Numbered from the stretch's first letter, positions 1,333-63,919 are shown. The stretch is 64,000 nt of DNA from a phage (GCA_028909515.1 GCA_028909515.1_4811.1), one strand, 5' to 3'. Notes: generated by a model not told the origin, from the sequence alone. Numbers and translations are program-made.

Positions 1333-1338
1333 AGTTCC

Positions 1339-2610
1339 TCACACAAATTTAACGTTGATAAAGCCGCGCATAGTATTCGCCTTATCCCAAGGATTGGCAA
1401 TCCACTCGCTGCCGTAATCGGATGGATAATTTGGCGCTGCCTGTCCGCTTTTCACTGCTGCAATCTTGCAATCTTTAATATACAAGCCTGGATACTCGCA
1501 AGACACTGCTGAAGCAATTTCAAAAGAAGATTGAGATTGACCTACTGTATATCCTTGCTCACCGTTAAAATTGCCATTGCCGTAATTCAAAACAGCAGCA
1601 ATAATAGATTCAGCGTCGGCGGTCGCGGTGCCTCTTGAAACAGTAATGTCGACATACAAGTCATATATTACTGCAGTGTTGAACTTAACAAAATAAGACA
1701 GTTGTGATTCTTCGTCGACAACTTCTATTCCATCAGGCGAGTTGACTGGATTGCCCTGATTGGTCGCGCCAAAGTCCCACGGCTGGCCGCCCATCTTCGC
1801 TTTGAAAATAGTCTCAGCAAAAACTTGCTTATCGAACGTTCCGCTTGCGCACACCCACACACCGTTAGGCGTTGAAAAGGTGATACCGCGTACCGTTCCA
1901 GGTAATCCCGTGTCGTTCTCCACGACCATCACCGATTCCACGCCGTCGACCGACATGGCACGGGCGCGAATGGCACCAAGCGATGCAATGCCCTGTTGGT
2001 AAAGACGCTTAACGCGAGCGGCCTTTAACGCTCCGTCTCCCATGTATTGCGTGCCTGGTACAGTCGTCGTTGCTGATGTTGAATACGTTCTTGACCATCC
2101 GATGACGTCATAGCCTTGCACCACGGTAAACTCTTCATCAGGCGCAACAGTAAATGAGCCATACTCTTTTGATGCAAGAGTCATGTTGCTTGTCTTGCCA
2201 GTCGAAGTGATTTGAACGTCTTCTAGAACATACCAGTATGTACCGTTTGAATCCGTCAGTAAACTTCCAGCAGGAATATCCAACAGCGGCGTTCCTTCTG
2301 CTGTAATTCCTTTCAGCATCGTGCTGATGTTTTTAGTTCGCTCAATCCCAAGCAATGCCGCGATGGCATCAAGGTATACGCCATACGAATAATTTGGGTT
2401 GATGAGACTTCCCAGCTCGGCGTTGTTCTTCATGACTGAAGTTCTTGCCAAAGTCTCTGTCGCGATTAAGGTGCCTTGCGGTGTCGAGGCATCAACGTCA
2501 AGCCCGACCCCTAGTGACTCAATCCATTCACTTTGAACGTCAGCCAGCAAATCGGCTGTGTCGATGGTTATTACACCAGTGCTTACTATGTAAGAATATT
2601 GTGCACTCAT
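1339..2610 (-). CDS. Baseplate wedge protein (gpJ-like)
   Basis: 423 aa ORF. Called from size and position downstream of the spike-like protein; no motif confirmed. Confidence 0.4.
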   Translation of the reverse strand: MSAQYSYIVSTGVITIDTADLLADVQSEWIESLGVGLDVDASTPQGTLIATETLARTSVMKNNAELGSLINPNYSYGVYLDAIAALLGIERTKNISTMLKGITAEGTPLLDIPAGSLLTDSNGTYWYVLEDVQITSTGKTSNMTLASKEYGSFTVAPDEEFTVVQGYDVIGWSRTYSTSATTTVPGTQYMGDGALKAARVKRLYQQGIASLGAIRARAMSVDGVESVMVVENDTGLPGTVRGITFSTPNGVWVCASGTFDKQVFAETIFKAKMGGQPWDFGATNQGNPVNSPDGIEVVDEESQLSYFVKFNTAVIYDLYVDITVSRGTATADAESIIAAVLNYGNGNFNGEQGYTVGQSQSSFEIASAVSCEYPGLYIKDCKIAAVKSGQAAPNYPSDYGSEWIANPWDKANTMRGFINVKFV

Positions 2611-3359
2611 TCTATCATATCCCCAGTTCTGTTTCCAGGTCCGTTACCTATGTGACCGTGAGTGGATACATTTGTGCCGCCGATTGTTGTGCCAGTCGGA
2701 AGCGTTGCCGTCGTTCCTTCTTTCCCTTCTATACCACCATTGAATGTCGCCTTTCCATTCACTATCAATTGTTGGTCGATAGTGGTAATTGGTGTTTTCA
2801 CGTTTACCCCAGCTGATGCGGTTATGTTTATCGAGTCATCACTTAATGCGATTCGGACAGCGCCGCTGAGTGACTGGATTACCATTGAGCCTGCATCCTC
2901 TCCGCTTATGGTGTATTTTCGGAATACATCCGGTATGAACAGTCCATCAGCGAAAGTTTTCACGCGACCATTGGTAGGCGCGGTCGGCTTCAATTCTTCA
3001 AGGAATGTCGACAACTCGCGGTCGCCAGCGAATATCCAGCCCAAATCACCTTCTTTCAAAGGAAAGTTGACTACGAAGCCGCCGCCGCCGATTGCCAATA
3101 CAGGAATTGACACCAAAGGTTGACGCTCCACTGGTTTATCATCAAGACTTACGAAATGAATAACAGGCTTTATGACTGCTAAATTCTGTTTGCGGTCATA
3201 AGATATTACTTGTGCAGGAATCATGCCGTCAGTGGTATACTTGCCACGGTCCAGCATTCCCTGCAGCGCGGCAAACATACTTGATTTGTCAGTTTGGTTG
3301 GGACTTGTAAGTTGGGTTAACTTTTCTGCCATCATAGACTCCTTATATCTGATCAACAA
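2607..3359 (-). CDS. Baseplate spike or hub protein (gpV/gp138-like)
   Basis: 250 aa ORF overlapping the next gene by 4 nt. Gly-rich core GGGGFVVNF. Assignment from position only. Confidence 0.35.
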   Translation of the reverse strand: MLIRYKESMMAEKLTQLTSPNQTDKSSMFAALQGMLDRGKYTTDGMIPAQVISYDRKQNLAVIKPVIHFVSLDDKPVERQPLVSIPVLAIGGGGFVVNFPLKEGDLGWIFAGDRELSTFLEELKPTAPTNGRVKTFADGLFIPDVFRKYTISGEDAGSMVIQSLSGAVRIALSDDSINITASAGVNVKTPITTIDQQLIVNGKATFNGGIEGKEGTTATLPTGTTIGGTNVSTHGHIGNGPGNRTGDMIE

Positions 3360-3391
3360 TTATAATCTATAAGGAGTCTATAAGCAATATT

Positions 3392-3913
3392 TTAGCGATT
3401 TGACTTTGATTCTTTAATGGCAGCTTCGTTTGAGTAGGCTTCATTAAGTGATTTTGCTATTAGTCCATCAAACATAGCGAATGCATCACGCAATGAATAA
3501 TATTCTTCCAATTCTTTTAACGAAGCAAGACCATTGTTTATTAGGCTTGCGACCATCGGCTCAAGATAATTAGGCTCTACGGTCGGGACGTCGGCCAAGA
3601 ATCTATTTGGAATCTTAGTACCTTTCCAATCACTGAGGAATCCAAAATTGTGCTTCTTCACCGCTTCCATTAGAACTTTCAATACAAGGTTTGGCGGCAA
3701 GTGATTTGGCACACTTTTCACTTCTTCACTGATGGCCTTCTCAGAGTTTAATCTGACTTTAGTTCCGTCATATTTAATAACATGGCATTCACTTAATAAT
3801 TCAAGTGGAGTTAATATGCTTATCGCATCAACCATTTCAAACGCGTCTATTGCGCTGAATTGATGTATTTCATAAGTAACTCCAAAAAGCTCAATTACTT
3901 TATTCTTTCTCAT
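3392..3913 (-). CDS. Tail/baseplate module protein
   Basis: 173 aa ORF in the co-oriented tail gene array. Confidence 0.4.
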   Translation of the reverse strand: MRKNKVIELFGVTYEIHQFSAIDAFEMVDAISILTPLELLSECHVIKYDGTKVRLNSEKAISEEVKSVPNHLPPNLVLKVLMEAVKKHNFGFLSDWKGTKIPNRFLADVPTVEPNYLEPMVASLINNGLASLKELEEYYSLRDAFAMFDGLIAKSLNEAYSNEAAIKESKSNR

Positions 3914-3915
3914 AT

Positions 3916-4788
3916 TTAGGCCGATGGTGCAACGCCGCCCGTCACCGTAAATATGTCATCACGACTTGCTAAATCATATTCAAGTTGCATGATGACAAAT
4001 GTAGTGTCGTTCAAGCTTGGGTTTAAGACTGATTTGAATTTCACACCTTGGGCAAGCTTCAAATCCGCGTTATACATGCAAGTGAAGTCAGCGCCCCACT
4101 CGTTCCACATCGGTATTCCGACAAATTCCTCAATCACCGTTATCTGTTCTGGATTCAGAATTTTGTCTTTATCCTTGACGATGAGCGTATCATCATCGAT
4201 ATATGCCGCAATAGAGTTCCTTTGATAGTTTTGAATCTCAAGCAGCAAGGCAGCTGCAACATATGTTGTTCGGCCTGGGTTCACAAGACGTTGATTGTTA
4301 ATCGACGTATCGCATATAACAGTATCAATATCCATTTGCTTTGCTGACCACTCCACAAACTCTTTGAAGGTTGGGTTTGACGGTGCAGCTTGAGTGATAA
4401 ACTTAGTCCTGTTTATCTGGTTGGTGTAGCAAGTGATGCGTATGACGATGTTCGGCGGCGGCGCTGTTATCTCGACAGTCGTCACCTGTCCCTTGTATAC
4501 CAAGTTGCTGCTGATTACGTTCCCCTCTCTGTACCCAGCTTCAATAGTCACGTTGACATAGTTCGCCGCCAACTGGCCTTGATCACGCAGACGTTTGTTG
4601 AATGCCGTGAAGTTGGAAAGCAGGTACTCTCTCAAGTACCCTGTCAATCCTGCAACTTCGATTGTGGCCTTATTCTGCACGGAAAGTGCTGCCTTTTTGA
4701 TTCGGCATCTGAGCATCAATCCTTCATCAAGCACTTGGCTTGTGCCATCCGGCATAGATAAGGTGACTTTAAGTATTCTCTTTTTCAA
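3916..4788 (-). CDS. Tail/baseplate hub-like protein
   Basis: 290 aa ORF immediately downstream of the tape measure gene. Confidence 0.4.
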   Translation of the reverse strand: MKKRILKVTLSMPDGTSQVLDEGLMLRCRIKKAALSVQNKATIEVAGLTGYLREYLLSNFTAFNKRLRDQGQLAANYVNVTIEAGYREGNVISSNLVYKGQVTTVEITAPPPNIVIRITCYTNQINRTKFITQAAPSNPTFKEFVEWSAKQMDIDTVICDTSINNQRLVNPGRTTYVAAALLLEIQNYQRNSIAAYIDDDTLIVKDKDKILNPEQITVIEEFVGIPMWNEWGADFTCMYNADLKLAQGVKFKSVLNPSLNDTTFVIMQLEYDLASRDDIFTVTGGVAPSA

Positions 4789-4792
4789 ATTA

Positions 4793-6973
4793 TCACCACT
4801 TCAAAGGTGTAGCAGTAAGGTTGTTTATGTCGTTGATATCATCTTGTTCAAGCACTCGTTTCGTTTCGAATGCCGTGCTGCGCGGGTCTTGAGCGCCGTT
4901 GACGTTGATGACAACATTTTTCTGACCCATAGTAATATCACGCCCACCAGGTCGACTATTCGCGGAAAGGTCGCCGCCGTATTTCTGGAATGCTTCAAGT
5001 TGGAATGCAGCAAGACGAGCGTTTTTCATCGCTTCGGCTTGAATGTTTGGTCTTACACCTGGAGTTGAAGCAAGCTGCATGTTTTTAATATAATCCCTTT
5101 GCGTTCCAAGTTTAAGGTAAGTTTGAGCAAAGTCAATATCACCTTTGTTAACTTGCCCCTGCATTAACTGCTCAACAGGCACGTTCAGGTATCCTGCAAT
5201 GGCTTCTTGCAACTGCCTGTATTGCACAGTTTGGCGCGATTGGCCTTGTACTGGTGCATAGCTGCCCTTTGGCGCTTCCGCTCCGCTACCGCTAAGGACT
5301 GGCGTTACTGGTGCACCTTGCGGCGCTGCCGTGGCATACTCACCATTGGATTGTCGGTCGAGAGCGGCCATGACCTTTCCAGGATACGCGCGTGTGTTCT
5401 TGCCCCAGCCGCTGCGGTCGTAGCCACCGTGATACATCGTCAGCGCAAGATTCCAATCGCCGTTGGCAGCGTTTAAATACTCTTTCAAAAGTTGAGCGCC
5501 GCCCATAATGTTTTGTCGGGGGTCACTGCCATCTGTTATTCCAAGACCCTTGAAGTTGGAAGGCATGATTTGCATCAAGCCAGTCGCGCCTGCTCCGCTC
5601 ACAGCATTTGGATTGAATCCAGATTCAACTTCAGTCACAGCTTTCATCATCGCTACAGGTATTCCATAGCGTTTTGAAGCTTCCTCATATATCGAGTCAT
5701 ATGCTGTCGGGTTGCCTGATCCAAGATTATTCCCTACGGTCGCGCCAGTATTCAATGCTGGTGTTCCAGGCATCGCGGATTGACCTGCACTTCGCCCTAT
5801 CTCACCAGCCCATGCAGCCCACGCTTGTCGCTCATCAATGACGCCAGCAAAAGTTGAAACAGCACTTGAAAACAGGTTGATGTCGCGAGTGAAAAGCGCC
5901 TGTGCAGAACGTTGTTCAGCTGCGTTCTGCTCTTGATTCCTCTGGCGTTTAATATCGCCATCAGCCATTTGTGTGATCCATCGGTCAACAGCTCTTTCGT
6001 GACGTTCATTTACAGCGGCCTGCTTGTCGAACGGATGTTTCAAGTCAGAGATGAAGTTGTCGACAAATTCGCTCCATCCGTCAGACATTCTTTGGAACAT
6101 CATTTGGAATCCTTCGACTGTATCAGCAGTTTTGCTGACAAGAGTCGAGAATGCAGGCATGACATTTTCACCAATTACCAGCTCAATACGCCGCCAATCT
6201 TCTTGAATTTGCCCCATACTATTTCGTATAGTCTCAAGAGCAGCTTGTTGGCGCTGCAGCTTTGCCGTTTCCTCATCGCTTATGCGCGTGCTTTCTTTTA
6301 CAGACTGGTTGCGCTCGCGAAGGGCGCGGACTTCATCAGCCGTGAATCCTGCCAATGCACCAATAGCACGAGCGGTCTGCTCATTAACGCTTCTCAGCTT
6401 TGTTCCAATTTCATCAAGCAGCTGGTTTGTGTCTTTTATGCCGCCGTTACTGTTGAAAGGACTTGTGCCCATCTTGTTAAGCAATAAGTTGTCCTTGTTC
6501 ATTACATCAGGGTTGGTGTATGCATTGAACGCCAAATTAGAAGCTTTACTGATTAAATCACGCGACCCCTGTGCGCCAAGGATTCCACCTGAACTTTCAT
6601 TCAACTGTCGTTGTAATTGTTCGACACCCATTGGAGAGAGTCCGGCTTCAAAGCCAAGCTTTCTTTGCGCTTCGTATTCTTTTCGAACATCAACGATGGA
6701 TTTGACAACGACGGCCAATCCTGCGACAACAGGAACGAGCGCGGCAAAGCGATATGTCAGCCGCGCAAGCATTCCGTCAATTGACCCTAGCTCACCAGTA
6801 AGGGGCTTTAGCTCGCCAAAAATATCTTTGAATGCTCCAGAGAAATCTTTGCCAGCTGATTTTGCCTTTTTGTTTGTCTGATCAACTTTATCTTGCAATT
6901 GCTCAAGACGATTGATGGACTCTTTCAAGTCCACCGTATATTGAAGTACAAATTTTTCTAATGAGTCAGACAC
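4793..6973 (-). CDS. Tail tape measure protein with lytic transglycosylase (SLT) domain
   Basis: 726 aa. Coiled-coil-like N-terminal half. SLT family motifs read directly: TEVESGFNPNAVSGAGATGLMQIMP and TMYHGG. Confidence 0.65.
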   Translation of the reverse strand: MSDSLEKFVLQYTVDLKESINRLEQLQDKVDQTNKKAKSAGKDFSGAFKDIFGELKPLTGELGSIDGMLARLTYRFAALVPVVAGLAVVVKSIVDVRKEYEAQRKLGFEAGLSPMGVEQLQRQLNESSGGILGAQGSRDLISKASNLAFNAYTNPDVMNKDNLLLNKMGTSPFNSNGGIKDTNQLLDEIGTKLRSVNEQTARAIGALAGFTADEVRALRERNQSVKESTRISDEETAKLQRQQAALETIRNSMGQIQEDWRRIELVIGENVMPAFSTLVSKTADTVEGFQMMFQRMSDGWSEFVDNFISDLKHPFDKQAAVNERHERAVDRWITQMADGDIKRQRNQEQNAAEQRSAQALFTRDINLFSSAVSTFAGVIDERQAWAAWAGEIGRSAGQSAMPGTPALNTGATVGNNLGSGNPTAYDSIYEEASKRYGIPVAMMKAVTEVESGFNPNAVSGAGATGLMQIMPSNFKGLGITDGSDPRQNIMGGAQLLKEYLNAANGDWNLALTMYHGGYDRSGWGKNTRAYPGKVMAALDRQSNGEYATAAPQGAPVTPVLSGSGAEAPKGSYAPVQGQSRQTVQYRQLQEAIAGYLNVPVEQLMQGQVNKGDIDFAQTYLKLGTQRDYIKNMQLASTPGVRPNIQAEAMKNARLAAFQLEAFQKYGGDLSANSRPGGRDITMGQKNVVINVNGAQDPRSTAFETKRVLEQDDINDINNLTATPLKW

Positions 6974-6976
6974 AGT

Positions 6977-7393
6977 TTACCCCTTATTTGGAGTCTCGCC
7001 GCTGAGGAATGGCGCGATTAATCGCATCGATTCGCCGATGAATGCTGCAGCCATTTCGCCGCCAGCCTGTTCCCAGTAGCCTTCACGCTCGGCGTGGGTG
7101 TCTGGGTTTATACCGTTCTCCATGAGAACTGCTTCAAATACTTCTTTAAGGTTTTCCCAGTCACCAAGATGGTTGTCAATTAGTGCACCAGTGCTTAATG
7201 GGATTTCTTGCCCCACGTCAAGCTCGACTTTTGCAAAGCTCAACACTTCCATCGTATACTCTGAACGAAAAGCAGGGTCTTTCGACATTGCAAATTCTAC
7301 GAATCGACGCTGAATATTCCAGCCTTCCATCGCAGTCATTTTGTTGATTTTAATTTCTACTGTACGACCAGTTTGTTTGTTGGTGATCTTCAT
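6977..7393 (-). CDS. Tail assembly chaperone-like protein
   Basis: 138 aa acidic ORF directly upstream of the tape measure gene. Confidence 0.35.
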   Translation of the reverse strand: MKITNKQTGRTVEIKINKMTAMEGWNIQRRFVEFAMSKDPAFRSEYTMEVLSFAKVELDVGQEIPLSTGALIDNHLGDWENLKEVFEAVLMENGINPDTHAEREGYWEQAGGEMAAAFIGESMRLIAPFLSGETPNKG

Positions 7394-7394
7394 T

Positions 7395-7955
7395 CTATAT
7401 TCCTACTGTTGATTTTATTTTATTATATAACGAACTCACAGTTGTAGTCAAACTGACTGGTTCTTTAATAGCAACACCATTTGATGATTCGTCTGCGGAT
7501 TGTTTAGGGTCGAAGCTTCCTTGAATGCTAAATGACGTTTGCTCGAAAGTTATTACTATTGAGACGCCATTCAAGTTTTCTTCTGACTGGGTTATTTCAA
7601 CGTCAGACATCGACATTTTACTGGCAATGATGCTTCGGGAAGTTATTGAAAATGTGACTTCGTCATCATCAAATGCATTTATGATATTTTCAATTGTAGA
7701 CTGATCATTGCAAATTACGTTTAACGCCATATGGGCTGGCATTACAACCTTTGCCGCCTGTAAATTGCTTACTGATGATGTGCTTGACACTTCGACGACC
7801 TGCATTGCTGTACCAGCAAGAGGGAATTGAGTTGTTTCTGCGGGGGATGTTATTTCTGCAGAAACAGGTGAAAGCCTTGTCCAGACAGGAAGACCTGTTG
7901 ACTCATTCGTTATGGTCAAAGATTGACCAGAAAGCAGAATCGAAACGAAGTCCAT
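7395..7955 (-). CDS. Tail module protein
   Basis: 186 aa ORF, tightly packed in the tail array. Confidence 0.35.
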   Translation of the reverse strand: MDFVSILLSGQSLTITNESTGLPVWTRLSPVSAEITSPAETTQFPLAGTAMQVVEVSSTSSVSNLQAAKVVMPAHMALNVICNDQSTIENIINAFDDDEVTFSITSRSIIASKMSMSDVEITQSEENLNGVSIVITFEQTSFSIQGSFDPKQSADESSNGVAIKEPVSLTTTVSSLYNKIKSTVGI

Positions 7956-8488
7956 CAGAACATCCCCTTGATACCATTCATCACCTTTGTAGCAACGCCA
8001 GTGACGCTGGCAGAAGTTTCTTTTATGTATGCAATGCCGCGCTCTATTACTGTTGAGTCGCCTGCCTGCGCTGTTTGAATAGACACATCCTGCTGTGTTA
8101 ATATCTCATGGAATACCAATTGTATGGGTTGCGACGTTATATTGTCAGCGTCCTGGCTGAAGTTGTTATTTTGCAGCACCATACGTTCGAATATTAAACC
8201 ACGGGAATTAATTGTGTATATAGTCGACCTGTTTTGCAACATCTTAGCTATTGCATCTGATGCGCTTTTTGTTTGTGCTATCACGGTGACAGTCAGTATT
8301 CGCGGCATCTTTACTCTGCCATCGACAATATAGCTGCCATCTTCCCTTTGGTTTTTGAATATCTTTGCTTGGAGTCTTATTTTGACGTTGACTATTGCCC
8401 ATCCAAGCGTGGATACTTCTCCAAGGTTGAAGCTCTTTATCGTGAAGCTTCTGTTTGATAAACTATATGACAATAAATCGATAGCCAT
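7955..8488 (-). CDS. Tail module protein
   Basis: 177 aa ORF, start overlaps the upstream stop. Confidence 0.35.
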   Translation of the reverse strand: MAIDLLSYSLSNRSFTIKSFNLGEVSTLGWAIVNVKIRLQAKIFKNQREDGSYIVDGRVKMPRILTVTVIAQTKSASDAIAKMLQNRSTIYTINSRGLIFERMVLQNNNFSQDADNITSQPIQLVFHEILTQQDVSIQTAQAGDSTVIERGIAYIKETSASVTGVATKVMNGIKGMF

Positions 8489-8985
8489 TAAATGGACCCC
8501 AATATGCTCTGCACCACGCCTTTTGCAATTTGAGACGTGCTCTGTGCGCCGCCGTAGCTGGCAAACACAAATGTGTATCGGTTTGTCTTGCGACGGCCTG
8601 ATTGCTCTATGGAGTCACCAAGCGGACCGCTGATTATTGTTCCGTTCGAGAATGCCACCCTTCCACCGTCAGGATATGTGATAAGCATTGATGTCACATC
8701 CTGAATTGGCAACCACTTGAATCCACCTTTACGGGCAGATAATAAAAGCTTAAGATTTATGTCATCTTCAGTGTTTGGAATGACCGCAATGGATACGCGA
8801 ACGACGGCGGCTTTGTCGTATATGCAAATGCCGCCGTCGTAAGTAAGTTGATAGCCTACTGATTCAACTTCCTCAATAATTAGCGAATCCTGGTCATCAG
8901 ACAAAGAACTGATATTCAGCCCAACAGGGAAAGATTGAAGAGCGACAATTCTAATGCTTGTGCCAAATCCACTAATATTGACCAT
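8488..8985 (-). CDS. Tail tube-like protein, paralog 2
   Basis: 165 aa. N-terminus MVNISGFGTSIRIVA matches MINVSGFGASIRLVA of the 9936-10403 product, with further shared blocks. Confidence 0.5.
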   Translation of the reverse strand: MVNISGFGTSIRIVALQSFPVGLNISSLSDDQDSLIIEEVESVGYQLTYDGGICIYDKAAVVRVSIAVIPNTEDDINLKLLLSARKGGFKWLPIQDVTSMLITYPDGGRVAFSNGTIISGPLGDSIEQSGRRKTNRYTFVFASYGGAQSTSQIAKGVVQSILGSI

Positions 8986-8987
8986 GT

Positions 8988-9254
8988 TTACTCCGCAGAT
9001 GCAGATTTAACTGCAGCAAGAATTTCATCCTTATAAGAAAGACCCTTGATGTCGATGCCATTTTCTTTGGCATAAGACTTCAATTCTGAAACACTCATGG
9101 AATCAAAATCGAGTTTTTGTTCAGTGGCCTTTTCTTCGACCTGCTCTTTGATTTCTGCAACAGGCTCGACTTTCTTGTTGAACATCTCTGATGCGTCTTC
9201 AAATTTTTCGCCAAATTTCATGACGCCATTTGCAAAATGAATTACTTGTGCCAT
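8988..9254 (-). CDS. Hypothetical tail module protein
   Basis: 88 aa acidic ORF. Confidence 0.4.
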   Translation of the reverse strand: MAQVIHFANGVMKFGEKFEDASEMFNKKVEPVAEIKEQVEEKATEQKLDFDSMSVSELKSYAKENGIDIKGLSYKDEILAAVKSASAE

Positions 9255-9610
9255 TATTGATTACTCACCTTTATACGTTCGCCATAAATAGTCACCACTT
9301 CTGCAGTGAATCCAAGGATACCGTTTTGGATGGTGACAGTCAATGAGTCGATTCCGGCAACGTCTGCTTTCTTCAGAATAGCATCTGCAATCGACTTTCG
9401 CGCACCGTCTTCGTCAACGGGCGACTTGAAAACGGTCCCCAAATAATCGACACCGTTTTCTATATCGTACAAGTCTTCACCAAGTCGCATCTGGTGCGCT
9501 GCCTTGATTACTTGCACCATCGCTTTTTCTCCTGAAAGAATATTTAAGTTTCTTCCATCAGGTAGAAAAAGATCATTATTTTCGTTAACTTCAATTGTTA
9601 GAGTTGTCAA
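9254..9610 (-). CDS. Hypothetical tail module protein
   Basis: 118 aa ORF with overlapping start/stop. Confidence 0.4.
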   Translation of the reverse strand: MTTLTIEVNENNDLFLPDGRNLNILSGEKAMVQVIKAAHQMRLGEDLYDIENGVDYLGTVFKSPVDEDGARKSIADAILKKADVAGIDSLTVTIQNGILGFTAEVVTIYGERIKVSNQ

Positions 9611-9936
9611 ATTGCAAACTCCGCTTCAGCAGTGGCCTGGAATTCAGCCAACTCAGATTCTGACATGTAATATAGATTACAGCCGCCAGAGTTAAAACTT
9701 TCATAATCAGGTACGCTGTCGAAAATGAAATTACCGTACCCAATCATAAGATACTTATAAGGCACCATTGGGATACCACCAAAACAGCGCACCCCTTGAA
9801 TCAAAAGTTCACCGTTGCGGTATACGTCGGCGCACATATGCTCGATAGCGGCAAAAATGTGCAACTGCCAATATGCACCGTCAACGTTAAAGCTGATATT
9901 CTGGTTAGGTACGCTGTCAAGTGGTATTTGATACAT
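9607..9936 (-). CDS. Hypothetical tail module protein
   Basis: 109 aa ORF with overlapping start/stop. Confidence 0.4.
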   Translation of the reverse strand: MYQIPLDSVPNQNISFNVDGAYWQLHIFAAIEHMCADVYRNGELLIQGVRCFGGIPMVPYKYLMIGYGNFIFDSVPDYESFNSGGCNLYYMSESELAEFQATAEAEFAI

Positions 9937-10403
9937 TATAAAATCTCTTGGTTGCTCACGCCAGTTTTGACTACGTTCTCAAACTTGAAGCGATATTGAC
10001 GTGTTTTCACACGACCTTGAGACTGGATGCCAGGAATTACTGAACCAGTTGTCAAGGTGCCTTTATTCAGCGTGATAACCATTCCAGAAGGATAAGTCAG
10101 CACAAGTGTGATCACGTCTTTTGCGGAGTTCTTACGCTTGCCTACGCGGTTTGCAGCCGCGAGAACGTCCAAGTTGACATCACTTTCAGAAGTAGGGATG
10201 ATGTTCACGCCTACTTCAAGCGGGTTTGCACGGTTCCATACTACCAAGTCACCGTTAAGGCCCATTGCGGCCTCAGAGATTTGCAGGTCCGGCGCGTCAA
10301 TCGGATCAGCATCATCTGCAAAATCAGAAAGAGTCACACCATTCGGAAAAGTGTTTGATGCTACCAAACGAATCGAAGCGCCAAAACCGGAAACGTTAAT
10401 CAT
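9936..10403 (-). CDS. Tail tube protein
   Basis: 155 aa ORF directly downstream of the sheath-like gene. Paralog of the 8488-8985 product. Confidence 0.5.
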   Translation of the reverse strand: MINVSGFGASIRLVASNTFPNGVTLSDFADDADPIDAPDLQISEAAMGLNGDLVVWNRANPLEVGVNIIPTSESDVNLDVLAAANRVGKRKNSAKDVITLVLTYPSGMVITLNKGTLTTGSVIPGIQSQGRVKTRQYRFKFENVVKTGVSNQEIL

Positions 10404-17788: not shown

Positions 17789-18090
17789 ATAGCCGCGCCT
17801 TTATTAGTGTGATACGGATGATACGGATAAAATGAGGCGTATTTTTATCCGTATCGGTGTATAAGCCGCGCTATCACTGGTGTGCTACGGATGATACGGA
17901 TGATACGGATACTTTTCATATATAAGAGTTTATAAAAAAATAAAATTAAATTAGATATATAATTTTAAATTAATTTATTTGAATTCCTATATAGTACGGC
18001 GGCAACGCGTATCATCCGTATCATCCGTAAGATTCTTTTGAAAACAACAACTTACTTGATACGGATGATACGTCATTATACGTATAAAAC
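17789..18090. repeat. Iteron-like locus 1: 9 bp ACGGATGAT repeats in both orientations around an AT-rich core
   Basis: A ~40 bp unit ending in TACGGATGATACGGAT occurs twice as a direct repeat. A 9 bp-stem hairpin lies between the copies. An AT-rich core at 17913-17995 is followed by inverted copies GTATCATCCGTATCATCCG. Confidence 0.6.
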
Positions 18091-29284: not shown

Positions 29285-29533
29285 ATGAATCAAAATGAAT
29301 CAGTAGCATTCTTACAATGGCTGGAAGGTGTGGTGGAGTATTACGCTCCAAAAGACCGCTTCATCTTTCAAGGAAAAAGTTACAAGCGCAAAGGGCAGGC
29401 CCAGAAAGCTGCGCGCAAGTACTGGAAAGAAGTTTATTCAGAATTTTTCTCTCAGATGGGAATCATCGGCGCAACGGTGTCCGGCGACCCTGCACAATTG
29501 GTATCGATTGATGAATCCAATCGTCACAATTAA
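29285..29533 (+). CDS. Hypothetical protein
   Basis: 82 aa ORF. Confidence 0.4.
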   Translation: MNQNESVAFLQWLEGVVEYYAPKDRFIFQGKSYKRKGQAQKAARKYWKEVYSEFFSQMGIIGATVSGDPAQLVSIDESNRHN

Positions 29534-29608
29534 TAAATCGATTTGAATGCCGCGCTATGCGGCTTTATTATAGTTATTGTTAATCACCCAAATATTAAAG
29601 GTAATGAT

Positions 29609-29989
29609 ATGTCAAATAAAAATGATTCTATGAGCCACACATATACTAAAGGCAGCGGCACCGCTTTTGGTTCAAGTATGAAAATTGACGCTCCATCTTG
29701 CTATTCTGATGGATTGGAAGTTGGCAACCGTGACTTGACATGGGTTTTACGTCGCCAATCCGATTTAGAAGAGAAGTTGGAAAATATTGAGCGTTCTCTT
29801 GAAAGTCTGCGCGACCAGCTTTTTGGTTGTTCTGGAGATGAGTCAAAACCTGTATCATATGCAGCCAATCGCGGTTTGATTGATAATATGCTTGCTATTA
29901 CCGCTCGATCAATTGGTAAAACTGTGTCCATTGAATCATTGATCAGCCAGATTGCGGATGGCTTTGGTGATGCCCATAAGAGTGAGTAG
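29609..29989 (+). CDS. Hypothetical protein
   Basis: Internal ATG (MSNKNDS) chosen over the track start at 29543. Confidence 0.4.
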   Translation: MSNKNDSMSHTYTKGSGTAFGSSMKIDAPSCYSDGLEVGNRDLTWVLRRQSDLEEKLENIERSLESLRDQLFGCSGDESKPVSYAANRGLIDNMLAITARSIGKTVSIESLISQIADGFGDAHKSE

Positions 29990-30009
29990 TGGGTGTTGGT
30001 TATTTAACC

Positions 30010-30038
30010 GTGAATCGTGGGTCGTGAATCTTGGGTCG
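30010..30038. repeat. Tandem direct repeat GTGAATC(G/T)TGGGTCG, two copies
   Basis: Read directly at the left edge of the island. Confidence 0.6.
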
Positions 30039-30253
30039 CTTAGTGCGGCCCTTTCTTTTGCCTGCCGTGCAGGAGTGTACTGCAAATTTACTGTGGGTAC
30101 AAAATAGTACGGTACTGTCTAGGATTTTTTCTTTGAAAAGTTAGTGGACCAAATGTGTCGTATTTTGATTAGTGTACTACAAATTTCATCAAGTACCAAA
30201 ACGCACCAAAAGACCCATGCCATAAAAACCACACGAACGCAATAATCAATCGC

Positions 30254-30338
30254 CGTTACAGTTTCCAGCGTTACAATTCGAAAGCGAATGATTCGAAGCA
30301 TAATAATATGAAGCATAATGATTCGAAAGCGAATGATT
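30254..30338. repeat. Nested direct repeats in non-coding DNA
   Basis: ATTCGAAAGCGAATGATT twice, GAAGCATAAT twice between them, CGTTACA twice just upstream. The 18-mer contains a 5 bp palindrome. Confidence 0.6.
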
Positions 30339-30463
30339 GCGTGTAGGATAATATCGGTGGGGATTATTCTAGATGCATGTAATTTCGCATGCGTACTATT
30401 TTCGGACGAAGGGTCGGCATATTCCTCGTTTTAGTTCGGAACGAAGGGAAAGTTTTGCGCCTT

Positions 30464-30537
30464 TATAAAACAACGACTTACGCGACCCTCCCTAACGGTC
30501 CGATATAGGTGTCTATATAAAACAACGACTTACGCGA
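30464..30537. repeat. Perfect 22 bp direct repeat TATAAAACAACGACTTACGCGA, two copies
   Basis: Copies at 30464-30485 and 30516-30537. Confidence 0.7.
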
Positions 30538-30662
30538 TGTTCTCCATTTAACGTAATACCCGTTATGCGAACTAAGGCGCATCTCGGCGAAGATTATGCG
30601 ACGACGAAGGGAAGGATAAAGGAGTTTTCGCGGAGAAGCGCATCGGGATAGGGACGAAGAAA

Positions 30663-30681
30663 AGCCGCGACTAAGCGCGGC
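30663..30681 (-). terminator. Weak terminator-like hairpin after small acidic gene A
   Basis: GCCGCG, 6 nt loop, CGCGGC, followed on the minus strand by TTTTCTTCG. Confidence 0.3.
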
Positions 30682-30701
30682 CTATTAGTAACGGAAGGGT
30701 A

Positions 30702-30992
30702 TTATAAGGAGACGATTTTAAAATAAGTTACTTCGCCGCCAAGTTGCGGGACCGCGATATATTCGCCGCCGATTTCGGTAATCGTATAGACGAAGCCGTT
30801 GATGGTTACGCGGTAGGATACTACGTCCTCGTCGCGATACTTGTAAAGGTCGAGGAAGTTGATCGGCTCATAAATAGACTCGATAGTCGCGTCTACGTTA
30901 GAGAGATAAACGCTCTCTAAGGTTTCGCCAAATACGTTAGAGTTTTCGGAAGTCTCGACGCGAGCGGAACGGATAGCGGATAAAGTAATCAT
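30702..30992 (-). CDS. Small acidic protein, paralog A of a three-member family
   Basis: 96 aa. AGGAG site. Blocks shared with B and C, for example SVYLSNVDATIE with EVYAANVDQTIE. Confidence 0.55.
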   Translation of the reverse strand: MITLSAIRSARVETSENSNVFGETLESVYLSNVDATIESIYEPINFLDLYKYRDEDVVSYRVTINGFVYTITEIGGEYIAVPQLGGEVTYFKIVSL

Positions 30993-31016
30993 AATATTCT
31001 CCTAGTTAGTCGGGAG

Positions 31017-31037
31017 GGTAGCGACCTATTCGCTACC
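31017..31037 (-). promoter_or_regulatory. Leader hairpin in the 5' UTR of gene A
   Basis: On the transcribed strand: GGTAGCG, loop AATAGGT, CGCTACC. Lies between the -10 element and the ribosome-binding site. Confidence 0.5.
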
Positions 31038-31058
31038 TCATCCCCTCTCGATATAAAC

Positions 31059-31088
31059 ATTATAGTCTTAGTGTACGAATAAGTAAAG
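31059..31088 (-). promoter_or_regulatory. Sigma70-like promoter of gene A
   Basis: Transcribed strand reads GTGCTTTACTT...TTCGTACACT...TATAAT then GTTTATATCGAGAGG. Shared with the promoters of B and C. Confidence 0.5.
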
Positions 31089-31097
31089 CACTTTTCG

Positions 31098-31399
31098 TTA
31101 TTCTGCGATAAAATATTTATAAGCTTTATCGCCTTCTATATCGAGATACTCGACGATAATTAACGCTTCGCCGCGCGGCGTAACGGTTTCGATGAGGGTT
31201 ACGGTTTCGTCGTCGGCCCGAATGAAGCGGATGGCGCTACGTTCGGCGTACTTAATCTCGTCGAAGGAAAGGCCGACGAAGGCGACCGCGCGGACTTTAA
31301 TTCCGCTCCACTCTAGTTCCGCGTTAACGGCTTTAAGAAGAGAAGCGACGGTTAAGCGGTCTTCGTCGTAAGTAAGAAGAGAAGAAATTAAAGTAGCCA
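31098..31399 (-). CDS. Small acidic protein, paralog C
   Basis: ATG MATLISSLL with a GGGAG site, chosen over the longer track ORF (31098-31457). Confidence 0.5.
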
Positions 31400-31457
31400 T
31401 AATAAAACTCCCGATGCTAGTAGAAGGAAGGGCCATCACCCGTCTCGATATAAACAA

Positions 31458-31485
31458 GTATACGCGAGTGTACGAAGAAGTAAAG
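31458..31485 (-). promoter_or_regulatory. Sigma70-like promoter of gene C
   Basis: Transcribed strand reads CTTTACTTCTTCGTACACT...TATACT then TGTTTATATCGAGACGG. Back to back with the promoter of B. Confidence 0.45.
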
Positions 31486-31528
31486 AAAAAAAGATAAAAT
31501 AATTTATCTCATTTTTATCGAAAAAGTG

Positions 31529-31557
31529 CTTTACTTTTTTCTACACTATATTATAAT
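31529..31557 (+). promoter_or_regulatory. Sigma70-like promoter of gene B
   Basis: GTGCTTTACTTTTTTCTACACT...TATAAT then GTACTCATATCGGGACGG. Confidence 0.5.
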
Positions 31558-31580
31558 GTACTCATATCGGGACGGGATGA

Positions 31581-31601
31581 GTTAACGAATAGGTCGTTAA
31601 C
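31581..31601 (+). promoter_or_regulatory. Leader hairpin in the 5' UTR of gene B
   Basis: GTTAACG, loop AATAGGT, CGTTAAC. Same loop as the gene A hairpin; two stem positions differ and both are compensated. Confidence 0.5.
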
Positions 31602-31625
31602 GCCTCTCCCAACTAGGAGTTTAAA

Positions 31626-31910
31626 ATGGCTATTCTTAACGTTTCTTCTATTCGCAACGCTATCGTCGAGAACTACGGCGTAAAACAAATTTTATCCGAA
31701 GTCTACGCCGCGAACGTAGACCAAACTATCGAGGCGGGTGGGGTAACGGTCGCCGAGGCTTTTAAACTTTACGCGGCGCTACCGGAATCGGACCGCGAAG
31801 CCTTCGAAGTAAACGTTAACGGATACTTCTTCGAAGCGGTCGAAATCGGTAACATCTTACTCGTTATGGGCGAAGAAGAATTTGAGACCTTCTCCCTCGT
31901 CGAAGCGTAA
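31626..31910 (+). CDS. Small acidic protein, paralog B
   Basis: 94 aa. AGGAG site. All 7 Leu codons are non-CTG and both Gln codons are CAA. Confidence 0.55.
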   Translation: MAILNVSSIRNAIVENYGVKQILSEVYAANVDQTIEAGGVTVAEAFKLYAALPESDREAFEVNVNGYFFEAVEIGNILLVMGEEEFETFSLVEA

Positions 31911-31990
31911 GAGAGGATTTTTAGAGCGTCGTGCGCGGCGCTTTAATAAAATTCTTTCGCGCCTAGCGCCCTAACAAATAGGAGTTTATT

Positions 31991-32617
31991 ATGGTTAGCT
32001 TAAATCGTTTCTCGACTAGCGGCGACGTTATCGCAACTAAGACCGCCGACCTCGTTGCATTTTATAATGCAAATTCCGGTTCGAAGCCGATTAAGAAATT
32101 TGCGGACCGCCGGACCGCCGAGACTCGCGTAATCGCGTTAATCGAGTCCTTAAACGCGCTCGATGAGCCGTCCAACGAATCGCCCATTCCCGACGCGAAG
32201 CCGCGCGAGGAAGTGTCCAGCGATGTAAAAACGCATAAGGCGCGCGCGGTCGTTAAAAAGGCCGAGCCGACCCAGGAAGAACTCGACGCGATGAGCGATG
32301 AAGAGTATGAAGCCTTCGTTAAGAGCGGCTTAAACGATAGTGCGAATTGCGTAGTGCAAAATGGAACTCCTTCCCATCGCCGTTCGAATAGCGAAGGTAT
32401 TGCAAAAAGTTGGGATAATAAGGAAGTGGCGCAAAAGCGTCTTACTCGTAACGGTGTTATGGTCGAGGGTGTAGGCGAGTTCAAATCGGTCCGCGTAGCG
32501 TTCGCCGCGCTGGGCTTACCGGATAGCAAGCATATTCGCTTCCGCATGAAGCTTAAAGAAGCTGGACGCTTAAACTTCGAGTTCGGCAACAAGTCCTACA
32601 CCTTCCAGATTATCTAA
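31991..32617 (+). CDS. Hypothetical protein with island-type codon usage
   Basis: 208 aa. AGGAG site. CpG-rich codons. Contains two copies of the ATAGTGC(A/G)AAT DNA motif in different reading frames. Confidence 0.5.
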   Translation: MVSLNRFSTSGDVIATKTADLVAFYNANSGSKPIKKFADRRTAETRVIALIESLNALDEPSNESPIPDAKPREEVSSDVKTHKARAVVKKAEPTQEELDAMSDEEYEAFVKSGLNDSANCVVQNGTPSHRRSNSEGIAKSWDNKEVAQKRLTRNGVMVEGVGEFKSVRVAFAALGLPDSKHIRFRMKLKEAGRLNFEFGNKSYTFQII

Positions 32618-33545
32618 TCGAATGGCGGCCCTTCGGGGTCGCTTTTCATAGTGCAAATTGGTGGATTATGAATACTCTTATTCTCATCGCTACGTTGTCC
32701 ATCGGAAGTGGTCGCACCTTATCCCTTTATGACCATAGTGCAAATTGCGCTTACCCTACGCGCGTTGCGGCGATAGTTAATAGTGCAAATAAGATGCTAT
32801 TCGAGACTTGCTGGCGGGTCGATAACGAGAAAGGTCGGGTAGTCTTAGGTTATAGTGCAAATCTGCTGGTGGAGTCGTTCGATTGGACGGCTGAAGGTCG
32901 TAAATTGTTACGTAAAGTGACTAAAAGATGACTTATAATAATACACTTTCTAACGCGTTTATGGTTGCAACCTTCCCCGTCGTATTACCGACGGCCCTAG
33001 AAGTGGAGAAAATGTGTTCTAGGGCCGTTTTATAGTGCAAATTGGCTAGTGGCGGGAGAATTGCTCGCCTTCTTTGGCCGCCTCTCCAAAATCCTTGTAG
33101 AAATCGTCCATAGAACGGCCCATTTTACTATTGCCGTTTTCATCAATCATCGTGATGCCGTAGATGATATTCAGTTCACGAATAGCATTAAGCTTGGCTG
33201 ACGCCGCGACTTCTGGATCACGCACAAGCTTGACCAAATTGTGAATTGCACCTTTTACGCTCCACAAATCCTTGAGTGGCATCTCTTCCATACGCTTTTT
33301 GAAGCGCATTTTGTAGTATGGGTTGCGTTGCGCGCAAAGGATTCGCTGGCCAGTGTAGTTATCCGTTGCAACTTCCATTCCAAATACTAGTGCAAAAGCT
33401 GCGCGCATGTCATGGCCCTGAATAACAAGGTCAATGAACTCATCGAATAAAGCCTGATTGTGCTCTGCAAATCGCGGGTCTTCAAAGTCTTCAGGCATCG
33501 CTACATAATCTTGACTCATAGTGCAAAATCCCATAGTGCAAATTA
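32336..33545 (+). repeat. Same-orientation array of an 11 bp motif, ATAGTGCAAAT, at least 8 copies
   Basis: Copies near 32336 (variant), 32351 (variant), 32648, 32735, 32780, 32852, 33032, 33518 (variant) and 33534. Present in coding and non-coding DNA and in different frames. Confidence 0.6.
33046..33534 (-). CDS. Hypothetical early protein
   Basis: 162 aa. The start region overlaps two copies of the 11 bp motif; an alternative ATG lies at 33519. Confidence 0.45.
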   Translation of the reverse strand: MGFCTMSQDYVAMPEDFEDPRFAEHNQALFDEFIDLVIQGHDMRAAFALVFGMEVATDNYTGQRILCAQRNPYYKMRFKKRMEEMPLKDLWSVKGAIHNLVKLVRDPEVAASAKLNAIRELNIIYGITMIDENGNSKMGRSMDDFYKDFGEAAKEGEQFSRH

Positions 33546-33744
33546 ATAGTGTGAATTATACAATGGATGGACATTATATTCAAGTGCAGATTGATGTTCA
33601 TTATGGCTATAAACGTACACAAATCATAGTGCTGATAGAGTTGCGGACCGTGGTGCGTGGTGTACTGTTTGATACGTATAAAAGAAATCCATCCCTTTCG
33701 CCGCTTGCTATGCAAATCAATGACTTAGCCGCTGCTGGCTGGTT

Positions 33745-34120
33745 GAAGCGTATCATGACGTATCATCCGTATTGCCGCAAGTCTTTGTTTTTACTTATAT
33801 CTTACGGATGATACGTATAAATATAAGTTTAGTATAAGTATGAGGATGTAGAAAAAAATTAATTTAAATTAATTCAAAATGGAGTTAATTAATTTTCTGG
33901 AATTCTATATATATTATGTTTGCACCCGTATCATCCGTATCAGCGTATTTTTCCTTATAAATCAATAGCCCAATGATACGTCATGATACGTATGAATGAC
34001 TGCCTTCGCGGCAAAACAATCCCAGTGTATACCAACAATCCCAGGCGCGGCGCACCACAGGGCCACGGTACAATATCCTGTGAAGAGGTGACTCTCATTT
34101 CCTTATACGTATCATCATGG
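33745..34120. repeat. Iteron-like locus 2: GATACG-type repeats in both orientations around an AT-rich core
   Basis: GTATCATCCGTAT, ACGGATGATACG and GATACGTCATGATACG flank an AT-rich stretch at 33840-33920. Homologous to the locus at 17789-18090. Confidence 0.55.
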
Positions 34121-34483
34121 ACTACGATTACTAAAACTAAAAACATTATTAAAATTCTGAGCACCAACACCACAAGCACCAAGACCCACGGCTAACGCAC
34201 CGTTAGCCAATACTCCACGATAAAATATCCTATAAATTACAAACAATCCGCGTATATAATAGCACCATAATTATTTATTTTTGATTCAATATTTACACTA
34301 AAATAAGCCATTGTATTTTCCTCACTGTTCTATCCGTATTATTTAGTGGATTAAACTGTCATAAATACTTATAAACGTTGATTGCCACAATATGCAATAA
34401 TCTTGATAAATTATTATAATATTTTCGCTCTCTTAAATTACAGCCTTGAATCGTAAATAACCACAAAAAGCCTCACATTACAC

Positions 34484-34514
34484 AGGCAAACAAAAAGGGC
34501 CAATCGGCCCTCTT
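34484..34514 (-). terminator. Rho-independent terminator at the end of the minus-strand early operon
   Basis: On the minus strand: GGGCC, 4 nt loop, GGCCC with extended pairing, then TTTTTGTTTG, directly after the stop of the 34529-34981 gene. Confidence 0.55.
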
Positions 34515-62882: not shown

Positions 62883-63845
62883 ATGACAGCATTAAAACCA
62901 ATGAAGGGTTGCCAACGTAAGCAGATTATCGAGCGCGGCGAGGACGTGCCGCTGCCTTGCGGACTGTCATTCAAGGTCGATGGCATACGTGCAATGGCGT
63001 ATGACAACTTGCCAATGGGCACTTCCGGCATGCCGTTGCGCAACGTTCAAATCAAAAAAGAGTTCCTCTTTTTGGGTGAACTAATTCACGGACTTGATGG
63101 AGAGCTAATCGACGGAAATCCAAATGATAAGAACGTCATGCAACAGGCCTATACTGCATGCATGAATACTGATGCAATCACTAACTTTACATGGTGGGTG
63201 TTTGATGACTTCAGCGACCCTGATCTGCCTTTTGAAAAGCGTTATGCAAACTATCGAGCTAGAGTTGCTGAAGTTAATCAGCATCTCATCAACCATGGTC
63301 GACGCCCATTCCTTCGCGCTCTCGAATATCGAAACATCGAAAATATGGAACAGTACGCGGCGATGCAAATCGAAGCAGACCAGCTTGGATATGAAGGCTT
63401 GTATGGCAAGTCTTGGACGGGCAAATATAAGCATGGCCGCGCGACGCCGAAGTCACGTGATGTGTGGAAGGACAAGCCGTGGACCGATGAAGAAGGGTTG
63501 ATCATAGACTTCGTTGAGATGATGGAGAACAACAACGAAGCATTCATTGACGAATTGGGTCGCACCAAGCGTTCAAAAGAGGCTGAAGGTTTAGTTGCGA
63601 AAGGATACCTTGGCTCATTCGTAGTCGTCAATCCAAAATATGTGGATGAGAAAGGTGAAATGATTCCTTTCCGCGTCTCCGCTGGTTCAATGCCTATGGC
63701 AGAGCGTAAAATGCTTTGGGAGAATCGCGAGAACTATCGCGATAAATACCTAACGTATAAATTCTTTAACTTTGGCATCGTCGACGTGCCGCGCTCTGCT
63801 TTGTATAAATGCTTCCGTGATATTACCGATATGGAGTATTTTTAA
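62883..63845 (+). CDS. ATP-dependent DNA ligase
   Basis: 320 aa. Adenylation motif I FKVDGIR, motif III FLGELIHGLDGEL, motif IV EGLII, motif V WKDKPW. Confidence 0.75.
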   Translation: MTALKPMKGCQRKQIIERGEDVPLPCGLSFKVDGIRAMAYDNLPMGTSGMPLRNVQIKKEFLFLGELIHGLDGELIDGNPNDKNVMQQAYTACMNTDAITNFTWWVFDDFSDPDLPFEKRYANYRARVAEVNQHLINHGRRPFLRALEYRNIENMEQYAAMQIEADQLGYEGLYGKSWTGKYKHGRATPKSRDVWKDKPWTDEEGLIIDFVEMMENNNEAFIDELGRTKRSKEAEGLVAKGYLGSFVVVNPKYVDEKGEMIPFRVSAGSMPMAERKMLWENRENYRDKYLTYKFFNFGIVDVPRSALYKCFRDITDMEYF

Positions 63846-63919
63846 GACACTAGATAAATAATTGATGCGGATAATCTATCGCGTCGTTTTATAGAATTTA
63901 ATATACAGTGTATACATAA

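Follow-up and report, generated by a model that had tools for sequence, protein, structure and literature searches.

A CA/TG-exclusion zone maintained by selection in early genes near the genome terminus of enterobacterial, terminal-repeat phages related to PB1

The question raised by this locus is why a short block of genes in a phage genome should be written in a sequence vocabulary that the rest of the genome does not share. The DNA studied here is a 64,000-nt stretch (GCA_028909515.1), called the window below, of a Wifcevirus, a PB1-related myophage of Escherichia coli, and the block is an island at about 30400-32650 that carries the genes called here gA, gB, gC and gD. An original prediction made from the sequence alone described it as CpG-rich and poor in CTG and CAG codons, and suggested either a horizontally acquired cassette or constraints on its sequence that have no relation to the remaining genome. 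The present analysis supports the second suggestion and not the first: in PB1-like phages of enterobacteria that have terminal repeats, an early-gene module close to the terminus lies in a conserved zone from which selection keeps CA/TG excluded.

The composition of the island was compared with that of 225 windows of matching size taken from other parts of the 64 kb. The observed/expected (o/e) ratio of CA/TG was 0.35 against 1.18 ± 0.06 in the controls (z = -14), the lowest of which reached 1.03, whereas CpG was raised to 1.98 (controls 1.09 ± 0.08, z = +11) and TpA to 1.20 (0.66 ± 0.07, z = +7.8). CAG plus CTG fell to 2.7 per kb, compared with 34 ± 6.4. The predicted CpG richness and CTG/CAG poverty were thus borne out, and CpG and codon usage deviate from the genome where G+C does not (0.47 versus 0.46 ± 0.02). 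A k-mer comparison counted 118 CA/TG against 352 expected, with CG up 1.9-fold and TA up 1.7-fold. These data demonstrate that the loss of CA/TG is the primary signal of the island, and that the CpG and TpA enrichment follows from it: pyrimidine-purine steps have been moved from CA/TG into its two transition neighbours, CG and TA.

Both CA and TG were low in the sense strand, in genes of either orientation, at the three codon positions and at codon junctions, and the non-coding DNA of the island, where coding density is 67% and as low as had been noticed, was equally depleted. The -35 hexamers are also affected, reading TTTACT instead of TTGACA. Since the depletion extends over all codon positions, junctions, strands and non-coding DNA, the constraint acts at the DNA level and not at the codon level. 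Its effect on the genes is nevertheless severe. In gA-gD, CTG plus TTG accounted for 1 of the 37 leucine codons, against 441 of 981 in 43 reference open reading frames, and TCA (0/40), CCA (0/12) and ACA (0/28) were absent; the gene in which seven leucine codons without CTG and two glutamine codons, both CAA, had originally been counted is gC, and the count is correct. Where the phage's own codon usage would give 32.6 CA/TG in gA, 35.5 in gB, 34.3 in gC and 76.5 in gD, we found 9, 6, 8 and 43, the minimum possible being 2, 2, 4 and 13, respectively; in gD the depletion weakens along the gene. Codon usage often differs between the early and the late genes of phages, and the early genes might have been optimised for translation or codons. 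This does not explain why non-coding DNA, both strands and the junctions between codons are depleted to the same degree, and TTA and CTA, which the island favours, are not codons that E. coli prefers. We regard this explanation as barely credible.

The limits of the island are unequal. CA/TG steps numbered 1-7 per 100 bp inside and 12-20 outside, and the left edge is sharp, with a drop from 12 to 3 per 100 bp at about 30400, whereas the right edge is graded and recovers between 32200 and 33200; the limits of 30000-32620 first given for the island are replaced accordingly. The following gene, gE, is mildly depleted (26 CA/TG observed versus 34.6 expected), and the small-terminase-like gene beyond it has a normal composition (75 versus 67).

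What the original prediction had missed, besides the CA/TG loss underlying its observations, is that the island sits in a direct terminal repeat (DTR) beside a physical end of the genome. In the record of phage Mansfield, a 3673-bp DTR predicted by PhageTerm maps to ~30228 to ~33900 of the window; the record of phage WFC carries an exact 3784-bp DTR at both ends, whose last base maps to ~30128 and whose start maps to ~33869-33880. The DTR therefore extends on the window from about 30128/30228 to about 33880/33900, and the island begins 170-270 bp inside a boundary that is a physical end of the virion DNA. The other third of the repeat, with the small-terminase-like gene, is ordinary in composition.

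This location, in a repeat that needs recombination and duplication, could point to a priming-free or replication/recombination zone, in which the lagging strand would remain unprimed near the end and give long single-stranded tails for concatemers, or in which the DTR would be duplicated. CTG is the template trinucleotide of enterobacterial DnaG primase, and CAG/CTG is the most depleted trinucleotide, with 2 in the core against 62 expected and 0.17 of expectation over five islands. However, every CA/TG context is depleted and not CTG alone, the phage has its own primase(s), and the half of the DTR at the other physical end is normal in composition, so that complementary tails would not overlap. 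As the restriction-site pattern described below is also unexplained by it, we consider a priming-free zone quite unlikely.

Conservation of the island was also investigated. A search with 29500-33000 matched 29 phage records at 90-95% nucleotide identity, all of them Wifcevirus-type myophages of E. coli or Shigella, including EC150, Mansfield, WFC and ECML-117; phages of this type are distant kin of the Pseudomonas PB1-like phages (PMC11990801). All ten aligned Wifcevirus genomes keep the island (CA/TG o/e 0.33-0.46), and only gC varies. Homologues of gD occur in 356 phage records from Pbunavirus, Kylevirus, Myosmarvirus, Carpasinavirus and Burkholderia phages. The Pantoea phages Kyle and PA1 carry an equivalent island in syntenic position, with a gD that is 47-48% identical and, in the slots of gA and gB, two acidic proteins without detectable sequence similarity to gA/gB. 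An equivalent island with a gD paralogue and two acidic proteins is found in the Myosmarvirus phages MyoSmar of Serratia and TropicalSun of Erwinia. The island lies beside the physical end in the three genera: it starts ~200 bp from the repeat boundary both in Kyle (DTR 3603 bp) and in MyoSmar, whose DTR at 1-3559 was determined by PhageTerm (PMC6753285). The Kylevirus and Myosmarvirus island proteins are 21-48% identical or unrecognisable, a divergence so high that synonymous sites are saturated; therefore, the signature must be actively maintained.

Some related observations concern gD and more distant phages. Tblastn matches fall in two places in Myosmarvirus because there are two gD homologues: a 167-aa copy at MyoSmar 346-849, in the CA/TG-free island at the genome end, and a second one at 65029-65661 of the MyoSmar record, within a longer protein ~3 kb before the other repeat copy. 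In the stretches fetched from PB1, XcP1 and Burkholderia phage WTB, no comparable island was found near the gD homologue. Xanthomonas phage XcP1 has a 500-bp non-coding patch beside a primase/helicase gene (7001-7500; CA/TG o/e 0.61, CpG 1.80, TpA 1.12), which may be a vestigial or miniature counterpart.

These comparisons bear directly on horizontal acquisition. A cassette with the composition of its donor would account for a segment strikingly unlike its flanks and for variable gene content, namely the presence or absence of gC and the divergent gA alleles. On the other hand, G+C is the same as in the genome, gD is a vertically inherited core gene of PB1-like phages and gE is common to Kyle; synteny revealed no patchy presence, as the island is kept in Wifcevirus, Kylevirus and Myosmarvirus and was found in all relatives examined at the same place in the three genera, even where the proteins have no detectable homology. 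At such protein divergence the imprint of a donor would have been lost long ago, and the presence of the island in all relatives is an outcome that the original prediction had itself named as a refutation. With the continuing purifying selection described below, this makes a cassette extremely unlikely. Islands of horizontal transfer are likewise sharply bounded and deviant in oligonucleotide and codon usage, but the present one differs from them in its normal G+C, its core genes, its presence in relatives and sister genera, and its maintenance by selection.

Polymorphism within Wifcevirus was used to examine selection, with a null in which the same substitutions were placed at random (2000 simulations). 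In the island core, 99 polymorphisms created CA/TG against 130.6 ± 8.9 expected, and none of the 2000 simulations was as low, whereas the flanks agreed with expectation (77 versus 71.7, 96 versus 93.7 and 92 versus 85.1). Transitions within CG/TA steps, which always create CA/TG, are rare in the island: the transition:transversion ratio there was 66:90, compared with 61:32 and 64:47 in the flanks and 143:85 at other island bases. These data indicate that purifying selection against new CA/TG continues.

The low ratio at CG/TA steps could also be mutational, if DTR-specific repair, recombination or replication suppressed CG/TA transitions or drove CA/TG to CG and TA, and the CpG of the T5 terminal repeat is raised as well. 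Nevertheless, only a part of the DTR is affected, with sharp internal edges (30400 here and ~2050 in MyoSmar) and a normal terminase half; both repeat copies undergo the same replication. Amino-acid usage has been reshaped, the residues that force CA/TG (C, W, H, Q and M) making up 4.2% of the island proteins versus 10.5%, and functional motifs such as the promoter element GTACAC retain their CA/TG. A regional mutational bias is therefore improbable.

The restriction behaviour of these phages provides a further line of evidence. Plating data are available for Bas98-100 against EcoCFT_I, EcoCFT_II, EcoRI, EcoRV and EcoP1_I: the efficiency of plating was ~1-1.5 on EcoCFT_II, 0.3-0.9 on EcoRI, and ~1 on both EcoRV and EcoCFT_I, and no plaques formed on EcoP1_I (PMC11990801, raw data). 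EcoP1_I was the exception although its sites are genome-wide about as numerous as those of EcoCFT_II, and this was left unexplained (PMC11990801). We reproduced the published site counts of Bas99 exactly (AGACC 89, EcoRI 38, EcoRV 8, EcoKI 5, EcoAI-type 3) and deduced CACAG as the EcoCFT_II site, because it is the sole 5-mer fitting the published counts of 92 in Bas99 and 58 in Bas02. The DTR of Bas99 contains no CACAG where 5.0 are expected (P = 0.007), and no EcoRI, EcoRV or EcoAI-type site; AGACC, the EcoP1_I site, occurs there six times, in both orientations. The DTR of the window likewise holds five AGACC and no CACAG. As AGACC contains no CA/TG, it survives the recoding. The plating therefore fits a restriction sensitivity that follows the sites in the repeat and not those in the genome, which is a prediction of a leading-region model.

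The same data bear on the avoidance of a sequence-specific DNA modification, according to which TG/CA would be modified genome-wide, accounting for the resistance to restriction, and the early region kept unmodified for the host polymerase. No modification genes were found, and the phage resists EcoRI and EcoRV although neither recognition site includes CA/TG; we consider this explanation very unlikely. A candidate hypermodification cluster was rejected, since its genes, for a ThyX thymidylate synthase beside a PNKP-type kinase/phosphatase and a short-chain dehydrogenase, look ordinary.

Type I sites were surveyed with a provisional list of 27 specificities of Escherichia, Salmonella, Klebsiella and Citrobacter. 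On this provisional list, the island has one site, against a mean of 9.0 (minimum 3) in 50 control windows. The 12 listed specificities whose words are free of CA/TG have no site in the island, against 6.8 ± 2.7 in dinucleotide-preserving shuffles (P = 0.002); control windows themselves stand at 0.73 of their own shuffle expectation for Type I words, and the expectation scaled in this way is still ~5 in the island. The corresponding counts in other islands were 0 against 5.1 expected in Kyle, 2 against 5.0 in MyoSmar and 7 against 5.4 in PA1.

Based on this evidence, we propose that the island is pre-early DNA of the leading end whose sequence has been recoded as an evasion of defences that target DNA, an extreme variant of leading-region defence avoidance, and we give this explanation a probability of about 0.5. 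The island would be the terminus-proximal, pre-early segment, transcribed by the host RNA polymerase; if this end enters first, and if entry is stepwise or coupled to transcription, its DNA would lie open in the cytoplasm at a time when the phage has made nothing to protect it. Because of this exposure before protection, selection would have recoded coding and non-coding DNA alike, removing the words that contain CA/TG and thereby stripping most recognition sites of DNA-targeting defences, with Type I and Type III restriction enzymes as the chief presumed selective agents. The small, acidic gA, gB and gC products and gD, expressed from three repeated strong promoters, would then protect the phage or take over the cell while the remaining genome is not yet in danger. 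The shape of the depletion, sharp at one edge and fading with distance from the terminus at the other, is in favour of this explanation.

In its architecture the module resembles the leading or pre-early DNA of T7 and T5. Three copies of one promoter-plus-leader cassette, identified as consensus matches to host sigma-70-type promoters, precede gA, gB and gC-gD, and the same TTTACT promoter motif is matched in the islands of Kyle, PA1, MyoSmar and TropicalSun. MyoSmar has a single inward-reading promoter, TTTACT-N17-TATAAT, at position 255. The coordinates of these and other features are collected in Table 1.

Table 1. Features of the island and the surrounding terminal repeat, in positions of the 64,000-nt window
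Feature	Position	Strand	Remarks
DTR boundary, a physical end of the genome and also the inner limit of the second repeat copy	30128-30228		WFC and Mansfield mapping
15-bp-periodic direct repeats GCGAATGATTCGAA / GAAGCATAAT just inside the terminus	30267-30354		4 copies, 15-nt spacing
CA/TG-depleted, CpG/TpA-enriched island	30400-32650		core 30400-32250
Non-coding CA/TG-free part of the island	30400-30660		direct repeats and several ACGAAGGG motifs
Terminator-like hairpin after gA	30662-30683	-	also annotated in Mansfield and WFC
gA	30702-30992	-	96 aa, isoelectric point (pI) 4.2
Promoter-like TTTACT-17-TATAAT for gA	31059-31087	-	first copy of the repeated promoter-plus-leader cassette
gB	31098-31400	-	100 aa, pI 4.6 (4.57, top of the gA-gC range of 4.05-4.57)
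Promoter-like TTTACT-16-TATACT for gB	31457-31484	-	
Promoter-like TTTACT-16-TATAAT for gC-gD	31530-31557	+	reads from the terminus into the genome
gC	31626-31910	+	94 aa, pI 4.05
gD	31991-32617	+	208 aa, pI 8.9
Putative terminator after gD	32622-32650	+	hairpin and T-run; WFC annotates a terminator right after the gD orthologue
gE	32668-32931	+	87 aa, homologue in phage Kyle
Small-terminase-like gene in the DTR remainder	33046-33534	-	Mansfield annotation
Other DTR boundary	33869-33900		WFC and Mansfield mapping

The island proteins may act as anti-defence factors. The products of gA-gC are small (94-100 aa), acidic (pI 4.05-4.6) and fast-evolving, and they have the size and acidity of DNA mimics of the Ocr/ArdA/Arn type; gA and gC are paralogues with 33% identity. 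Alleles of gA are 61-99% identical within the genus, and only 61-63% in WFC-type phages, where the surrounding DNA exceeds 90%. gB was found on Wifcevirus-type contigs only, and no more than 12 of the Wifcevirus records have gC; ECML-117 and RCIP0319 lack it, and there gD comes directly after gB. The presence or absence of gC and the divergent gA alleles are the pattern expected of arms-race genes. Sequence searches of the island proteins against Pfam, PHROGs, NCBIfam and PDB returned only phrog_4730, a function-unassigned core protein of PB1-like phages, for gD. The AlphaFold models were poor (predicted local distance difference test scores of 61 for gA and 51 for gB), and Foldseek found no match for them in the PDB (E<=0.001); a search of BFVD returned the WFH orthologue and a 94-aa protein of phage Kyle only, the acidic Kyle protein being a weak structural match to gA with 21% identity.

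The leading regions of known phages offer precedents. In T5, mutants become sensitive to EcoRI once they have acquired a site for it within the first-step-transfer (FST) region. The terminal repeat of T5 comprises the FST DNA, the first to enter the cell according to the annotation of the T5 record, and its pre-early region resembles the island in its long direct terminal repeat, host-polymerase promoters and small early genes. T5-like phages resist restriction through some function encoded by the DNA that is injected early (PMC8594841). In T5 1-10219, CpG o/e was 1.3-1.5, with a dip to ~1.0-1.1 between 6 and 8 kb, and it was 0.5-0.9 over the 12 kb that follow; the 27 listed Type I words occur in the repeat at about half density (mean 3.3 versus 6.8 per 2.5 kb). 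Unlike the island, however, T5 shows no real CA/TG depletion (o/e 0.8-1.08), and it has a 10-kb FST region with the known genes A1, A2 and dmp and a mapped injection stop signal, whereas stepwise transfer is presumed for the island. No homology was found between the T5 FST genes and gA-gE.

The leading region of T7 and other Autographiviridae is similar to the island in having inward-reading host promoters a few hundred bp from the entering end, the MyoSmar promoter at 255 bp resembling T7 A1-A3 at 498-750. The first T7 products are small, acidic anti-restriction proteins (Ocr, gene 0.3), and gA-gC are also small and acidic, although no similarity of gA-gC to Ocr could be detected. In Autographiviridae, leading-region motifs decide Type I sensitivity, whether or not other parts of the genome also contain the motif (PMC12455610). 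In contrast to the island, the leading 12 kb of T7 have an ordinary dinucleotide content, individual sites being avoided and not a dinucleotide. As neither T7 nor T5 is depleted in CA/TG, the depletion is not a general property of leading regions. The island also shares with restriction-site avoidance that words are rarer than composition predicts (Type I 0 versus 6.8; CACAG 0 versus 5), but the classical form is genome-wide and word-specific, whereas the island covers 2.2 kb, is dinucleotide-based and has more CG/TA-rich palindromes.

A number of points weigh against the recoding of leading DNA to escape defences. The dinucleotide-level depletion is broader than any known restriction-site set requires. 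Distinct 6-mers are down by only ~17%, and 6-bp palindromes occur 35 times against 29 in controls, the CG/TA-rich ones being commoner. The classical leading regions are unlike the island, T7 being without CA/TG depletion and T5 having raised CpG only, and for the present phages both the first-entering end and stepwise entry are what we infer. The site content agrees with plating for five of the five systems, of which only EcoCFT_II and EcoP1_I are informative, and a selective inhibitor failing on EcoP1_I would be an equally good account of the plating data. One EcoKI site (AAC-N6-GTGC) lies inside the island at 61601 of the Bas99 record, and the island of Pantoea phage PA1 holds seven E. coli/Salmonella Type I words against 5.4 expected. 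Further, no known anti-restriction fold was matched by the island proteins, with poor models.

Two other ideas about the vocabulary of the island were rejected. The number of distinct 6-bp palindromes is 16 against 19.8 in controls (range 11-27), and TCGA, CGCG and CTAG are enriched; as CG/TA-rich palindromes have become commoner, Type II sites are not minimised overall. A generic stealth by fewer k-mers is weak by itself, given the small loss of 6-mers and palindromes that are not reduced. An array of binding sites was sought through repeated 5-6-mers, which gave a modest excess of CGAAGG/CCTTCG only.

The serious alternative is a single reader of TG/CA steps, with a very short specificity, active while only the island DNA is in the cell. 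This could be a phage pre-early nuclease destroying host DNA, a host nuclease or a host DNA-binding protein, and the island, without the reader's target, would be self-immune. In T5, degradation of host DNA depends on A1. We know of no dinucleotide-specific nuclease in these hosts, and the sequence searches against Pfam, PHROGs, NCBIfam and PDB found no nuclease domain in gA-gE. In favour of a reader, it is the dinucleotide as such that is cleanly depleted, in both strands and also in the -35 hexamer and non-coding DNA, and the depletion has a context hierarchy over five islands, from TCAG/CTGA (0.06 of expected) and TCAA/TTGA (0.08) to ACAC/GTGT (0.93), the tolerance of the last being partly due to the conserved GTACAC promoter motif. 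The lack of the feature in the T7 and T5 leading regions suggests a lineage-specific agent, and the completion of phage development in ~10 min in Wifcevirus-type phages (PMC7048862) is compatible with one. On the other side, a reader alone leaves the lack of CA/TG-free Type I words unaccounted for, and we judge this alternative unlikely.

Whether by recoding or by immunity, CA/TG exclusion in three enterobacterial genera may represent a mode of self-protection that has so far not been described, a suggestion that we make tentatively and hold at less than even odds. It would take the form either of a 'dinucleotide stealth', in which the leading DNA is recoded wholesale and a broad class of defences that read DNA is thereby evaded, or of immunity to a host or phage factor that reads TG/CA steps. 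Our literature search found no description of a CA/TG-exclusion zone.

Other features surround the island. The periodic repeats just inside the terminus have a normal CA/TG content (12-14 per 100 bp) and are candidate packaging or terminus-recognition signals. Near the mapped terminus, the top strand at 30195-30260 is rich in C+A and poor in G (ACCAAAACGCACCAAAAGACCC...) and adjoins the CA-excluding zone; MyoSmar 1-110 is likewise C+A-rich and G-poor in its top strand at the terminus (CCACTTACACCCGCCCCACCACAATCCACC...). Such strand-asymmetric DNA beside the terminus may be a conserved terminus or packaging element. The non-coding part of the island contains two 25-nt direct repeats (30461-30485 and 30513-30537), small ORF annotations there are inconsistent among relatives, and an Rfam search of 29500-34500 found no RNA family.

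Elsewhere in the window, a second small patch at 63700-64000 (CA/TG o/e 0.50, CpG 2.17) is cut by the window end and includes a promoter-like TTTACT-N16-TATACT at 63963. A 300-bp intergenic region at 17790-18090 carries ~12 copies of GATACGGAT/ATCCGTATC in both orientations, with ~70 bp of almost pure A+T amid them (~17915-17985). It resembles iterons with an unwinding element and may serve as an origin of replication or as a hub of regulation; the repeat is the source of its high CpG, which has no connection with the island.

The CA/TG-exclusion zone offers a testable account of a published puzzle, namely that Wifcevirus phages resist restriction with no protection known for them, yet EcoP1_I blocks them fully while EcoCFT_II, with a similar number of sites, does not. 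It also singles out the products of gA, gB, gC and gD as candidates for pre-early proteins of anti-defence or takeover, and the phage group is of therapeutic interest through its relation to Pbunavirus. In terminal-repeat phages, simple scanning for dinucleotides can reveal where the leading end and the pre-early module lie. A single factor reading CA/TG, if there is one, would be a new player in the conflict between phage and host. If collective site avoidance is the true cause, the island would be the most extreme local case known to us, and the prediction of host range from restriction-site counts would have to weigh the place of sites and not their number alone.

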